A DNA stretch of 24,889 nucleotides from Clostridiales bacterium (GCA_012800685.1 JAAZIT010000242.1:1-24889), one strand, 5' to 3'. Counted from the first letter of the stretch, positions 19,236 to 24,171 are shown. The notes: generated by a model from the sequence alone, not told the origin. Made by a program: numbers and translations.

Positions 19236-19264
19236 TTGACAATGTGACTTATTTCGACTATAAT
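19236..19264 (+). promoter_or_regulatory. Consensus sigma-A promoter of the thi operon
   Basis: TTGACA-17 nt-TATAAT directly upstream of the TPP riboswitch. Confidence 0.85.
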
Positions 19265-19276
19265 TAATATGTAATC

Positions 19277-19391
19277 AAACAGGGGAGTGCGTCCGATGTG
19301 GTCGCTACTGAGAGGGAGCTTAGCTCCGACCCTATGGGATATTTTATAATATCTTTATACCTGATTCGGATAATGCCGACGTAGGGAGTTT
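19277..19391 (+). ncRNA. TPP riboswitch (canonical)
   Basis: AGGGG...CTGAGAGGG-P3a-CCGACCCT...ACCTGAT-TCGG-ATAATG-CCGA-CGTAGGGA, upstream of thiC. Confidence 0.97.
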
Positions 19392-19413
19392 GCTGTGATA
19401 AAATATAATCATG

Positions 19414-19444
19414 GAACAAGCTTTTGTTGGCTTGTTCTTTTTTT
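19414..19444 (+). terminator. Riboswitch expression-platform terminator
   Basis: GAACAAGC (19414-19421) / GCTTGTTC (19430-19437) followed by a T run. Confidence 0.88.
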
Positions 19445-19540: not shown

Positions 19541-20863
19541 ATGACTGGCGTAAAGACTTACAAAACCCAAATGGAAGCAGCCAAAAAAGGTATTATCACA
19601 AAGGAAATGGAGATAGTTGCTAAAAAGGAACAGATGGAAGTTGAGAAGCTAAGGGGACTTGTTGCACTTGGACAGGTGGCAATTCCTGCTAATGTTAGAC
19701 ACGCTTCACTCTCACCAGAGGGAATAGGCAAGGGCATGAAAACCAAAATTAACGTTAACCTTGGTATTTCAGGTGATGCAAAAAACTATGACCATGAATT
19801 TGAAAAGGTAAATATGGCTTTAAAATTTGGAGCAGAGGCTATAATGGATTTATCTAACTATGGAAAAACCAATAAATTTAGACAAGAGCTTATTAATATG
19901 TCTCCTGCAATGATTGGTACAGTTCCAATGTATGATGCCATTGGATATCTTGAAAAAGATTTGCTTGAAATAACAGCAAAGGACTTTTTAAAGGTTGTTA
20001 AAGCTCATGCTGAAGAGGGTGTGGATTTTGTTACAATCCACGCTGGAATTAACAAGCGTTGTGTTGAGGCTTTTAAGCGTGACAAGAGGAAGATGAACAT
20101 TGTTTCTCGTGGTGGAAGCCTGCTATTCGCTTGGATGGAAATGACAGGAAATGAAAATCCATTTTTTGAATATTATGACGAGGTTTTAGAAATTCTTCGT
20201 GAATACGATGTTACAATTAGTTTAGGTGACGCACTTCGTCCAGGGTGCATTGACGACAGCTCAGATGCTGGACAAATTTCGGAGCTAATTGAGCTAGGGT
20301 ATTTAACCGAAAGAGCGTGGGCAAAGGATGTTCAAGTTATGGTTGAGGGACCAGGACACATGGCAATTAATGAAATTGAAGCAAACATGAAACTTCAAAA
20401 AAGACTTTGTCATGAAGCACCTTTTTACGTTCTAGGTCCAATTGTAACAGATTGTTTTCCAGGATACGATCACATTACATCAGCTATTGGTGGTGCAATT
20501 GCTGCATCATCTGGAGCAGACTTTTTGTGCTATGTAACACCTGCTGAACATTTAAGACTTCCTAACATTGATGACGTAAAGGAAGGCATAATTGCAACAA
20601 AAATAGCGGCACATTCGGCTGATATTGCAAAGGGAATTCCAAACGCAAGAAACAGAGATAATGCCATGTCTGATGCAAGGCACAGGCTTAATTGGGACGA
20701 TATGTTTAAAATTGCATTTGATGGTGAAAAGGCTCAAAGATATTTTGAAGAAACTCCACCAGCAGACCGTCATAGCTGTTCAATGTGCGGTAAAATGTGT
20801 GCAGTTAGAACAACAAATTTAATTCTTGAAGGTAAAAAGGTTGAGTTTTGTACAGAAAAATAG
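19541..20863 (+). CDS. thiC: Phosphomethylpyrimidine (HMP-P) synthase, radical SAM
   Basis: [70 protein letters not shown]-terminal CSMCGKMC. Confidence 0.98.
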
Positions 20864-20895: not shown

Positions 20896-21045
20896 AGTGC
20901 GGATGAAGAGGAGCGTCTTTGTCTGTTAATTATGGCCAGAAAATCTGGTTCAGATAGCGATGGGAACTCGTGTTTCGAGGTGAGAGGGTGCTAAAAGTAC
21001 CGACCGAACTGATTAGCATCTGTGTTTTATACACAGTTATAGCAC
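20896..21045 (+). ncRNA. Candidate variant TPP-like riboswitch upstream of thiW
   Basis: Shares TGAGAGGG, P3a, CCGACC and CTGATT with the upstream TPP riboswitch. P1/P2/P4/P5-like pairings can be drawn, but the ATAATG loop and CGTAGGGA are absent. Confidence 0.6.
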
Positions 21046-21143
21046 CTTGTTGCTGTAATGGAATTTCATGTGGTTTTAACATGAATTGCTAGGGTTTGGC
21101 TTTTCCAATGCTTTTCAGATACTATTTGAAAAGAGGAACTTAA

Positions 21144-21887
21144 ATGAACCAAAAAACAAACAAAACATCCCAAGCAATGTTAAAAATGATTATGCTTGCA
21201 ATGCTAGTAGCAATCGGAGTAGTAATTTCGCCAATACTTAGGGTTGAGGGAATGTGTCCAATGGCACATCTTATTAATATAGTATGTGCGGTATTGTTAG
21301 GACCGTGGTACTCGCTTTTATGTGCTGTACTTATAGGAATTTTAAGAATGTTATTCATGGGTATTCCACCACTAGCCTTAACTGGTGCAGTGTTCGGAGC
21401 TTTTTTATCAGGTGTTCTTTATAGAGCATCAAAGGGAAAGCTTATATTCGCTGTAATAGGTGAGGTTATTGGAACTGGGATTATTGGTGCAATTGTATCT
21501 TATCCAGTCATGACATTTTTATGGGGAAGAGAAGGACTTACAGCATTTTTCTATATTCCATCATTTATAAGTGGAACTTTAATTGGTGGAGCTGTTGCAT
21601 TTATTTTCTTAAAAGAACTGGCTAAAAACAAACTTCTTGGCAAATTTCAGCAAGCGTTAGGTTCAAAGGTTTGTGAGGGAAGTATAAATGTTTGGAGCGA
21701 CTCAATTGGAATTGCGTTCTTAGGCATTATAGGATATCTTGCGGTATTAGTATTAAGAAACAGGCTAAATTTTAAAGGCATTGCCTTTTATGCACCACAC
21801 ATTATTTTAGTGCTATTTGTGGCATTTGCTGTTATATATTTAATAATAAACAAGAAAACAAAAAAGGAAAGCCCACAGACAAATTAA
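21144..21887 (+). CDS. thiW: ECF transporter S component ThiW (thiazole precursor), with C-terminal extension
   Basis: PMAHLINIVCAVLLGPWY, GIPPLALTGAVFGA, GEVIGTGIIG, FYIPSFISGTLIGG; located in the thi operon. Confidence 0.9.
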   Translation: MNQKTNKTSQAMLKMIMLAMLVAIGVVISPILRVEGMCPMAHLINIVCAVLLGPWYSLLCAVLIGILRMLFMGIPPLALTGAVFGAFLSGVLYRASKGKLIFAVIGEVIGTGIIGAIVSYPVMTFLWGREGLTAFFYIPSFISGTLIGGAVAFIFLKELAKNKLLGKFQQALGSKVCEGSINVWSDSIGIAFLGIIGYLAVLVLRNRLNFKGIAFYAPHIILVLFVAFAVIYLIINKKTKKESPQTN

Positions 21888-21899
21888 AGGAAGTATTAT

Positions 21900-22727
21900 A
21901 TGCTCATTAAAAAACTAAACTGTATAAAAAATTTAGAAAATGTTAAAATATCTTCTCCTCTCATTCATTGTATTACTAATCCAATATCTATAAATGATTG
22001 TGCTAATGGTGTACTGGCAGTTGGAGCAAGACCTATTATGGCAGAACATCCAGACGAGGTAAGCCAAATAACGAAAACTGCAAAGGCTTTAGCACTTAAT
22101 CTAGGAAATATTACTGATGCACGAATGGTATCAATGCTAATTTCAGCTGAAACAGCAGTTGAAATTGGTATCCCTTTTGTGATAGATACGGTTGGAGTGG
22201 CTTGCTCAAGCTTGAGGCTTAAATATGCAAGAAATATAATTAAAAAGTCAAGACCAACTGTTATAAAGGGAAACATAACTGAAATAAAAATGTTTAGCGG
22301 AAGTAATTATTCTCAAAATGGAGTTGACAGTCTTAAATCTGACAGCTTAGATTTAAGTGAAAATTCTTATTTGGTTTTAGAGACCGCAAAAAAGCTAGGC
22401 TGTATTGTTTTAGCTAGTGGAGAGATAGATATTATATCTGATGGTACTAAAGTAGTTCATGTTTATAATGGTACTAAGCAGCTATCTAATATAACTGGTA
22501 CAGGGTGTCTTTTAAATGTACTAGTGGCAAGCTTTCTTTCGGTTTCGCCTGATATTTATGGGGCTATTACAGCAAGTGTGGTTATGGGCATTTGTGGAGA
22601 AATGTCGGTAACAACCAAAGGCAGTGGAACATTTAAAGTAAATTTAATGGACGCACTTTCAAAACTTACAGAGGAGCAATTTTTAAAGTATTTTAACGCA
22701 AAGGAAGTTAATATTAATGGGCTATAA
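21900..22727 (+). CDS. thiM: Hydroxyethylthiazole kinase
   Basis: PLIHCITN, LAVGARPIMA, LNLG, IDTVGV, IKGNITEI, ITGTGCLL. Confidence 0.93.
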   Translation: MLIKKLNCIKNLENVKISSPLIHCITNPISINDCANGVLAVGARPIMAEHPDEVSQITKTAKALALNLGNITDARMVSMLISAETAVEIGIPFVIDTVGVACSSLRLKYARNIIKKSRPTVIKGNITEIKMFSGSNYSQNGVDSLKSDSLDLSENSYLVLETAKKLGCIVLASGEIDIISDGTKVVHVYNGTKQLSNITGTGCLLNVLVASFLSVSPDIYGAITASVVMGICGEMSVTTKGSGTFKVNLMDALSKLTEEQFLKYFNAKEVNINGL

Positions 22728-23361
22728 TTTTAGAAAAAATCTTGATACAACACTGTATTTAGTTACAGACAGCACGAATCTTGAGGAAAAAGTATTCCTT
22801 AAAAAGATTCAGAAGGCTTGTCAAGGTGGAGTTACACTTTTACAGCTAAGAGAAAAGGAACGCACAAGTCGTGAATTTTTAAGCCTTGCAAAAAAGGTAA
22901 TGGAAATATCACACAGATATAACATACCACTTTTAATTGATGATAGGATTGACATTGCATTAGCCGTGAACGCTGACGGAGTTCATGTGGGACAAAGCGA
23001 TATTCCGGTTTCAATTGCAAGAAAGCTTTTAGGTGAGGACAAAATTGTTGGTGCAACAGCAAAAACAGTTGACCAAGCTCAAGAGGCGTACAGTCAAGGT
23101 GCTGACTATTTAGGAGTGGGTGCAATTTATCCAACCACCACTAAGGTAATTACCGTTTTAACAAAGGTTGAAACTCTAGCCGAAATTTGCAAGGCTGTTC
23201 CTATAAAAGTAAATGCAATTGGTGGGCTTAACAGGGATAATATTTCGGTTTTAGAGGGAAGTGGAATTGACGGAATATGCGTTGTTTCTGCAATCATGAA
23301 GGCTGAGAAACCTTTTGAAGAAGCTGAGAGCCTTAGAGAACAAGTTGAGAAAATGAGGTAA
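22717..23361 (+). CDS. thiE: Thiamine-phosphate synthase
   Basis: LYLVTD, GGVTLLQLREK, IDDRIDIA, GVHVGQSD, GADYLGVGAIYPTTTK, AIGG. Overlaps the thiM end by 11 nt. Confidence 0.97.
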   Translation: MGYNFRKNLDTTLYLVTDSTNLEEKVFLKKIQKACQGGVTLLQLREKERTSREFLSLAKKVMEISHRYNIPLLIDDRIDIALAVNADGVHVGQSDIPVSIARKLLGEDKIVGATAKTVDQAQEAYSQGADYLGVGAIYPTTTKVITVLTKVETLAEICKAVPIKVNAIGGLNRDNISVLEGSGIDGICVVSAIMKAEKPFEEAESLREQVEKMR

Positions 23362-23370
23362 TGGAATAAA

Positions 23371-24171
23371 ATGAAAACAGTTTTAACTATTGCTGGCTCA
23401 GACTCAAGTGGGGGAGCTGGAATTCAAGCAGATTTAAAGACTATGACAGCCCATGGGCTTTATGGAATGTCTGTTATTACGGCTTTAACTGCCCAAAACA
23501 CTACGGGAGTTTTTGGGATTTTTGAAAGTACTCCTGAATTTGTTGGGAAGCAGCTTGATGCAGTATTCACAGATATTTTTCCTGATTCAGTTAAAATAGG
23601 AATGGTATCAAACCCTGAAATAGTCAAGGTAATTGCCCAAAGGCTAGAGCTATACAAAGCAAAAAACATTGTTCTTGACCCAGTAATGGTATCAACCAGC
23701 GGTTCAAAGCTTATGTCCGACGATGCCCAAAATGTATTAGTTTCGGAGCTTTTACCACTTGCTAGAGTTATTACTCCCAATGTTCCAGAATGTGAGATTT
23801 TGGCAGGGATAAAAATTCAAACAAGTAACGATATGGTTGAGGCTGGAAAGATTATCTTTAACAAGACAAAAGTTTCAGTTTTAGTAAAAGGTGGACACAG
23901 AGTAAATGATGCCAACGATGTTTTAATAAATGCTGAGGGTGCAAAATGGTTTTTTGGGGAGAGAATAGACAACCCAAATACTCATGGAACTGGTTGCACC
24001 TTATCATCAGCAATTGCTTGTGGACTAGCTAAGGGAAAAACTCTTTCAGAAAGTGTAATTTCTGCAAAGGCATATATTTCTAAAGCAATTAAAGACGGCA
24101 TGGATTTAGGAAAAGGCTCTGGCCCTTTAAATCACTGTTGTATAATTAACAAACCGAGTGTTGACAAATAG
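23371..24171 (+). CDS. thiD: Hydroxymethylpyrimidine/phosphomethylpyrimidine kinase
   Basis: LTIAGSDSSGGAGIQADLKT, VKIGM, DPVMVSTSG, TPNVPE, KGGH, HGTGCTLSSAIA. Confidence 0.97.
   Translation: MKTVLTIAGSDSSGGAGIQADLKTMTAHGLYGMSVITALTAQNTTGVFGIFESTPEFVGKQLDAVFTDIFPDSVKIGMVSNPEIVKVIAQRLELYKAKNIVLDPVMVSTSGSKLMSDDAQNVLVSELLPLARVITPNVPECEILAGIKIQTSNDMVEAGKIIFNKTKVSVLVKGGHRVNDANDVLINAEGAKWFFGERIDNPNTHGTGCTLSSAIACGLAKGKTLSESVISAKAYISKAIKDGMDLGKGSGPLNHCCIINKPSVDK

Follow-up and report, generated by a model that had tools for sequence, protein, structure and literature searches.

A canonical TPP riboswitch stands at the head of the thiC-thiW-thiM-thiE-thiD operon of a Clostridiales bacterium (GCA_012800685.1, JAAZIT010000242.1:1-24889; this whole stretch of 24,889 nucleotides is called the window below), and the question raised by this locus is what the 280-nt gap between thiC and thiW contributes to the control of the genes behind it. 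An earlier note, made from the sequence of the window, had proposed that the gap holds a TPP-like RNA with a rebuilt pyrophosphate pocket. As listed in Table 1, a promoter-like site precedes the operon. A scan of the gap found no promoter-like or terminator-like site there, so thiW is transcribed as part of the TPP-controlled message, and whatever control the gap exerts must be post-transcriptional, coming after transcription initiation. The TPP aptamer preceding thiC scores below the RF00059 gathering score of 54.3 bits because of a 34-nt insert after UGAGAGG, and at that threshold it would escape standard annotation (48.8 bits). The thiC gene of the window, which lies between the two RNAs in an arrangement that is unusual compared to relatives, answers to TPP only, and the place of the gap allows thiW-thiM-thiE-thiD to be regulated separately from thiC, as the earlier note had supposed.

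Table 1. Features of the thiamine locus and of the thiW leader in the window (positions counted from the first nucleotide of the window)
Feature	Position	Strand	Basis
Promoter-like site TTGACA-17-TATAAT, for the whole thiC-thiW-thiM-thiE-thiD transcript	19236..19264	+	12/12 consensus matches, sigma-70-like
Canonical TPP riboswitch aptamer	19271..19404	+	RF00059, 48.8 bits, E 7.6e-8
Terminator of the canonical TPP riboswitch	19413-19438	+	Terminator search
thiC, HMP-P synthase	19541..20863	+	Pfam ThiC_Rad_SAM, E 7.9e-193
Predicted distal 5' arm of long-range helix P0, UUGAGUUUU, within the thiC end	20841..20849	+	MFE fold
Hairpin A (stem 20899-20909 / 20916-20926; loop GGAGCG 20910-20915)	20899..20926	+	Covariation
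Insert hairpin GGCCAGA/UCUGGUU, between hairpin A and P1	20934..20950	+	Alignments of relatives
P1 5' strand AUAGCG(AUG), 20954-59(-62)	20954..20962	+	Duplex with 21048-56, -9.5 kcal/mol
P2, UGG with CCG	20961-63 / 21004-06	+	Homology with TPP aptamers
Pyrimidine-sensor core (junction G-A, A20966-G20980 mismatch, P3, T-loop)	20964..20986	+	
P3, CUCG / CGAG, loop UGUUU	20967-70 / 20976-79	+	Covariation
T-loop UGAGA	20981-85	+	Conserved block
P3a hairpin GGUGCU/AGUACC (20987-92 / 20996-21001)	20987..21006	+	Covariation
GACCG, directly 3' of P3a (C21004-G21006 = P2 3' strand)	21002-06	+	99/101 copies
Variable 'P4' domain: CUGAUU 21009-14 and hairpin CUGUGU/ACACAG	21007..21047	+	At the TPP P4/P5 place, not conserved
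P1 3' strand UGUUGCUGU	21048..21056	+	Pairs with 20954-62; aligns with CGNCGCUG of relatives
Expression platform	21101..21143	+	Local fold, -9.4 kcal/mol
thiW, predicted thiazole ECF S-component, long 247-aa type	21144..21887	+	Pfam ThiW, 1.8e-48
thiM	21900-22727	+	Pfam HK, 1.8e-63
thiE	22717-23361	+	Pfam TMP-TENI, 3.5e-60
thiD	23371-24171	+	Pfam Phos_pyr_kin, 1.3e-94

The gene content of the source genome appears consistent with a thiazole salvager, as read from an incomplete assembly. In this assembly, which is 81% complete, no convincing thiG was found (two partial matches, 27-32 bits), nor was TPK. A ThiT gene sits behind a weak TPP-like aptamer: this aptamer (24.5 bits, with a terminator; ~1500-1640 of L032, from source contig C254) precedes a ThiT-type thiamine transporter (C254:5999-6514) and has CACUGGUUUCGG at the canonical CCUGAU place. 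Two ThiW types occur behind the motif, one of ~170 aa and one of ~240 aa, whose additional ~85 aa at the C-terminus match no Pfam family; in the 247-aa ThiW of the window the ThiW domain covers residues 15-161. A third ThiW-like S-component is also found behind the motif, in which FPAMAPFQHF replaces FPVFGSKCAPVQHM of the ~170-aa type.

The element in the gap had no Rfam match, either at gathering or at E<=10 (2.9 kb; gap alone), and RF00059 gave no match at E<=1 on the motif in 20 homologous loci. The weak or partial RF00059 match that the earlier note had expected was thus not seen. A BLASTN search of the gap against 60 relatives returned one weak match only, and in the genome of that match a copy of the core immediately precedes thiW and follows two canonical TPP riboswitches. 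A degenerate pattern of the core (<=3 mismatches) matched 25 of 401 genomes of the same bacterial family, in 19 genera. As a control, the reversed pattern had 0 matches among these 401 genomes. A covariance model built from the pattern-found copies (model R1) finds full-length copies in other families of the order. The window copy matches the full model with 76.5 bits (E 1.8e-16), which is the lowest score among the members, and it has all elements of the RNA family: hairpin A with GGAGCG, GCGA(U)GGGAA, P3, GUGAGAGG, P3a, CGACCG and the closing P1. By an exact-pattern scan of one genome per species, the motif is present in at least 120 species. The hosts among the matches listed include Oscillospiraceae, Ruminococcaceae, Lachnospiraceae, Faecalibacterium prausnitzii, Gemmiger, Intestinimonas and Pseudoflavonifractor, together with Christensenellales, Peptoniphilaceae, Floccifex and Veillonella. 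In the same bacterial family as above, thiW is found in 85 of the 401 genomes, about 28 of which carry the motif; in those of the remaining thiW genomes that were examined, thiW is preceded by just one canonical TPP riboswitch. Three copies that were reached via ThiW and not via the pattern miss one U (GCGA-GGGAA) and keep all else, which argues that the pattern did not create the apparent conservation of the motif. As this leader escapes RF00059, more than 100 species carry it unannotated. A published description of the RNA was not found in the open-access full texts searched, subscription journals being outside the scope of that search. These results identify the element as a member, intact in the window, of an RNA family that is widespread in gut Firmicutes, apparently undescribed and, on our reading, derived from the TPP aptamer.

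The structure of the family was assessed in 101 copies aligned to model R1. Here, 98.6% of the cells were paired, compared to 79% in shuffles and to 48% or less when the register was slid by 1-3 columns, and compensatory changes were present in 16 of 18 pairs. Hairpin A has compensatory changes at all 9 stem pairs, and its loop, which is absent from the search pattern, reads GGAGC(G/U) in 99/101 copies. In P1, whose family form is ..CAGCG/CGCUG.., the five nucleotides preceding GCG can pair with those that follow CGC in 64-88% of the copies (shuffled partners, 40-64%), and several pair types occur. P3 also covaries, its outer pair being GC, CG or UA, and P3a has compensatory changes at 4/5 pairs. 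The unpaired pocket nucleotides (UGAGA, GGGAA, GACCG and the loop GGAGCG) are near-invariant over at least 120 species. Taken together, the covariation supports the predicted hairpin A, closing helix P1, P3 and P3a.

These results also bear on the possibility that the gap holds a pseudo-riboswitch, the product of random decay of a duplicated TPP riboswitch. The window copy has a relic-like CUGAUU block and the lowest score of the family, as such decay would produce, but the elements that define the family are all intact in it, and many genera share the family, with compensatory changes in its helices. Decay therefore has a negligible probability, and the leaning of the earlier note towards a real TPP-related RNA and away from simple decay is supported. 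A circular permutation of the TPP aptamer was rejected, since the block order does not match.

The element spans ~20899-21056 in the window and its expression platform runs to 21146; the gap folds more stably than its shuffles (z -3.4). The sequencing runs in which this sequence was found are all DNA runs. The sequence blocks singled out from the window alone are all there, namely TGAGAGGG at 20981-20988, GGTGCT/AGTACC, GACC(G) at 21002-06 and CTGATT at 21009-14, as are the hairpins CTGTGT/ACACAG (21020-25 / 21031-36), 20934-50 and 20967-79, and the GGGA before P1 is indeed missing. In contrast, most of the fold that had been drawn by hand has to be redrawn from the 140 homologues. The bases assigned to P1 (GTG 20897-99 with CAC 21043-45) fall to hairpin A, and the true P1 joins 20954-59(-62) to 21048-56; the 12-bp stem 20914-25/20951-62 does not exist, this region being part of hairpin A or of P1. 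For P2, the strand CCG 21004-06 was placed correctly, but its supposed partner CGG 20900-02 is covered by hairpin A and the true partner is UGG 20961-63. Both strands of P2 are invariant, and this helix was therefore assigned by homology with TPP aptamers. The insert hairpin at 20934-20950 is lineage-specific, and in the alignments a few relatives hold other inserts at this place.

Compared to the canonical TPP riboswitch (RF00059), the family shares the P1/P2/P3 topology, the J3/2 UGAGA T-loop, the P3 loop UGUUY, P3a, the GACC that closes P2, the location in thiamine operons and a probable OFF polarity. The aminopyrimidine-sensor arm that is kept resembles especially a local 'GACCGA' subtype of TPP aptamers. 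Model R1 cross-matches the pyrimidine arms of canonical TPP aptamers, which indicates that the pyrimidine half is homologous. In contrast, hairpin A with its loop GGAGCG and the conserved AGCG/CGCU core of P1 are new in the family, the P2 3' strand reads GACCG instead of GACCC, and the RNA follows a complete TPP riboswitch, the first gene behind it always being thiW, thiM or thiS. The pair beside UGAGA is A-G in 129/143 copies of the motif (A20966 and G20980 in the window), and G-C in 106 of the 112 canonical TPP aptamers located upstream in the same loci.

The P4/P5 arm of TPP riboswitches binds the pyrophosphate and gives selectivity for TPP. In the family, the region from GACCG to the P1 3' strand varies from 1 to 235 nt (median 43; 131 copies), and in 20/131 copies the 'P4' domain has 12 nt or fewer, which is too short for a hairpin. 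CYUGAY is found in this domain in 4/131 copies, the window among them, and the canonical P4/P5 signature CCUGAU...GCGUAGGGA in 0/131, the window having CUGAUU only. Since this domain is variable or absent and the full signature is never seen, the pyrophosphate arm is gone; judging from these alignments, a variable, dispensable hairpin stands in its place. The lack of a canonical pyrophosphate arm and of any Rfam family match agrees with the earlier note. However, its altered J4/5, L5 and J5/4, taken there as a rebuilt pocket, belong to this unconserved domain. The search for homologues thus returned a conserved family in which the altered junctions are not conserved, and the conserved novelties are hairpin A with its loop, the AGCG/CGCU core and the A-G mismatch.

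The genes behind the motif are nearly constant. Among the 133 loci with enough sequence, the first downstream gene encodes ThiW in 124, ThiM in 7 and ThiS in 2, and the usual operon is thiW-thiM(-thiE-thiD(-thiC)). A canonical TPP aptamer lies upstream in 20/20 loci scanned with Rfam (55-69 bits, above gathering, 100-250 nt away), and two of them stand in tandem in 3 of those 20. Some loci differ in arrangement. In a metagenome-assembled genome labelled Fusobacterium (L098), ~1.6 kb of unrelated sequence that resembles a mobile-element insertion separates the motif from thiW; in L145 the order is reversed, with a canonical-looking TPP aptamer 3' of the motif and before a ThiW-like gene; and in L146 approximately four tandem units of ~45 nt, each with AAAAGGAG, lie between the motif and thiW.

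A terminator is lacking in most leaders, which suggests that control is translational. In the window, the Shine-Dalgarno (SD) sequence AAGAGGAA (21131-38) is buried in a local hairpin (21103-38, -9.4 kcal/mol), in which UUCC 21103-06 pairs with GGAA 21135-38 and encloses the hairpin CUUUUCA/UUGAAAAG (21111-17 / 21126-33). The outermost helix of the MFE fold of the window, P0, pairs 20841-20849 with GGAACUUAA at 21135-21143, the thiW ribosome-binding site (duplex -11.4 kcal/mol). P0 is nested with the folded aptamer, and thus aptamer folding and burial of the ribosome-binding site would go together. In the family as a whole, complementarity between the 5' arm and the ribosome-binding site exceeds that of permuted partners (z -6). 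However, the distant 5'-arm/SD pairing is largely a matter of composition, as permuted or reversed arms reach -19 kcal/mol compared to -24 for the real ones. Burial of the SD by the distant 5' arm was therefore set aside, except for the extra ~4 kcal/mol and the proximal part, which are specific; the rest is reproduced by the controls.

Alternative pairings were found in the largest leader class. There, X', which comprises the P4 3' strand and the beginning of the P1 3' strand, can pair either with the P4 5' strand (X) or with a second copy of X just after P1 (X2). The X:X' pairing has -7.0 kcal/mol compared to -5.7 for permuted sequences (z -5), and X':X2 has -9.8 compared to -7.0 (z -11); the two are mutually exclusive, as is characteristic of switches. 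A specific complementarity (z -10.8) also links X2 to the leader 5' of hairpin A, and the predicted helices between X2 and the 5' leader have up to ~38 bp and run on into the SD. Pairing of the loop GGAGCG with X2, X or the P1 3' strand was rejected, having no specificity (z about +1). In the window, UUUUCCAAUGCU (21101-12) is complementary to the aptamer 5' strand AGCGAUGGGAA (20956-66; duplex -11.1 kcal/mol), but this 'anti-aptamer' is tentative, being not better than 17% of shuffles.

In 14/126 leaders, which belong to several lineages (e.g. L081, L044/45/93), the P1 3' strand coincides in part with the SD, spacer or start codon or lies directly beside it, and in two Veillonella leaders outside that tally (L082, L198) it contains AUG. 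The position of the P1 3' strand over the SD or start codon, the nested P0 and the SD hairpin of the window argue for OFF polarity, and on these predicted pairings the element is probably a translational OFF switch. Constrained folding with P1 favoured or forbidden showed no consistent difference in SD accessibility, and this neutral model was left out of the polarity argument. The terminator-type leaders (L036, L104, L116, L118, L163, L175, L177, L109) are idiosyncratic and were not taken as decisive for polarity; one of them, L036, is readable as an ON switch.

In the relatives, hairpin A is also preceded, at a distance of 20-70 nt, by a conserved purine box, GAAAGGA(A/G/U)G(U)G (e.g. L046, L049, L052, L057). 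This box comes right after the U-run in the terminator of the upstream TPP riboswitch, and a small hairpin stands 3' of it. RAAGGA is present in exact form in 71/140 leaders; the box is SD-like and has no consistent start codon. A leader peptide starting from this box was rejected, as neither start codon nor spacing is consistent. The box appears as the 5' arm of a long-range helix to the region before the real SD.

We propose, with a probability of about 55%, that the TPP aptamer gave rise to an undescribed riboswitch-like family, of which the element is a member and in which a thiamine-pathway metabolite other than TPP is bound and thiW translation is turned OFF. Such a metabolite would bind the kept pyrimidine pocket and lock P1, and locked P1 would keep the thiW ribosome-binding site paired. 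Without the ligand, alternative pairings would open the aptamer and free the ribosome-binding site; in most relatives the alternative would be the pairing of the P4 3' strand with the copy of the P4 5' strand placed after P1. The constant place before thiazole-salvage genes points to a second, different sensor of the thiamine pathway, and together with the upstream canonical TPP riboswitch the element would form a two-input gate on the thiazole-salvage and coupling genes. That the TPP aminopyrimidine half and the GGAGCG hairpin form a new class reading a non-TPP intermediate (thiamine/TMP, HMP-PP or a thiazole phosphate) seems somewhat better than an even bet.

As to the ligand, the kept pyrimidine pocket suggests a molecule with an aminopyrimidine ring, and the lost pyrophosphate arm and the place behind a complete TPP switch suggest that this is not TPP. 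The OFF-type platform and the operon end product TMP, which is made by ThiE, then point to thiamine or TMP. An OFF switch for one of these fits best, namely with the kept pocket, the lost arm, the OFF polarity and the end product, and we name it tentatively. Against it, such a sensor should also precede other thiamine genes, yet no gene but thiW, thiM or thiS comes first behind the motif. As Atilho et al. (PMC6478431) reason for the thiS motif, an exclusive link with the thiazole branch would indicate HMP-PP if the switch is ON and HET-P if it is OFF. An ON switch sensing HMP-PP (or HMP-P), which would make the element a functional but structurally unrelated twin of the thiS-motif HMP-PP riboswitch, is the main rival and rather doubtful to us. 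Such a switch would induce the uptake and phosphorylation of thiazole once the pyrimidine half builds up at low TPP; the genes (thiW, thiS, thiM/thiE) and the place after a complete TPP riboswitch are those of the HMP-PP class (PMC6478431), the aminopyrimidine pocket is kept, hairpin A could be a new phosphate sensor nearer to the pocket, as the shorter ligand would need, and L036 is readable as anti-termination upon P1 formation. However, the P1 3' strand is the SD, spacer or start codon in several independent lineages, where activation is impossible if the ligand stabilises P1, the nested P0 is compatible with the folded aptamer, and a pyrophosphate ligand sits oddly with an aptamer that has lost its Mg-pyrophosphate arm.

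End-product feedback on the thiazole branch, by an OFF switch that senses HET-P or cHET-P, would account for a first gene that is exclusively of this branch and for the OFF-type platforms, and it is the alternative that Atilho et al. name for the leaders of thiazole genes (PMC6478431). Yet the kept arm is the one that binds the pyrimidine ring, with UGAGA, the P3 loop and GACC conserved as in TPP aptamers, and we consider this ligand unlikely. TPP aptamers contact the thiazole little (2GDI-type structures). It is quite unlikely, too, that the element is a second, structurally divergent TPP sensor that sharpens the TPP response in a pseudo-cooperative tandem: tandem TPP-TPP arrangements are common (213 reported, PMC9481103), some loci have two canonical copies as well as the motif, and the OFF polarity is that of TPP switches, but the P4/P5 arm that gives TPP selectivity is absent or dispensable, a plain duplicate would suffice, and the distinct architecture is conserved across orders only before thiazole genes. 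A structured leader of TPP-aptamer descent without a small ligand, acting as a protein-binding, ribosome-standby, stability or translational-coupling element, is very unlikely. Sensing of a small molecule is deduced here from sequence, an SD-like purine box is conserved upstream in relatives, and the P0 5' arm in the window lies in the last thiC codons, so that thiC translation could open the thiW ribosome-binding site; against this, both the unpaired pocket, near-invariant in at least 120 species, and the mutually exclusive helices are what is usually seen in an aptamer that binds a metabolite. The preferred reading thus remains an OFF switch that responds to a thiamine-pathway metabolite other than TPP.

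TPP riboswitches are the most widespread riboswitch class, and to our knowledge HMP-PP is the only thiamine precursor with a known riboswitch. If the proposed reading is true, the origin of a second aptamer from the TPP fold through exchange of a single arm would clearly illustrate the modular evolution of aptamers, the family would report a new signal in the vitamin B1 metabolism of abundant human-gut bacteria that depend on thiazole salvage, and it would add another natural two-input RNA logic gate.

The HMP-PP riboswitch (thiS motif) is found in operons containing thiS, thiW and thiE and stands in tandem after a TPP riboswitch with its own terminator (PMC6478431); like the present family, it puts two-input logic on the thiazole branch. 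Its aptamer is very small, lies within the hairpin of a terminator and turns expression ON (Atilho et al. 2019, PMC6478431). In contrast, the family RNA is a multi-helix aptamer of 100-160 nt that is a homologue of the TPP aptamer, it has mostly translational platforms and looks OFF, and no terminator is present in the gap of the window. The earlier note was therefore right to set the element apart from the small terminator-embedded class, as this is a multi-helix junction of ~100-160 nt. The Breaker laboratory mentions unpublished TPP variants that favour thiamin or TMP and that may or may not include the present RNA (PMC9481103). Guanine riboswitch variants have switched to xanthine or 2'-dG (PMC9295807). 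With ligand-switched variants the family shares the concept that a known scaffold with a few changes next to the pocket and an altered gene context goes with a changed ligand. Variants of the FMN riboswitch are also ligand-switched. However, ligand-switched variants still match the model of their parent class, whereas in the family described here a whole arm has been replaced and a hairpin has been added.
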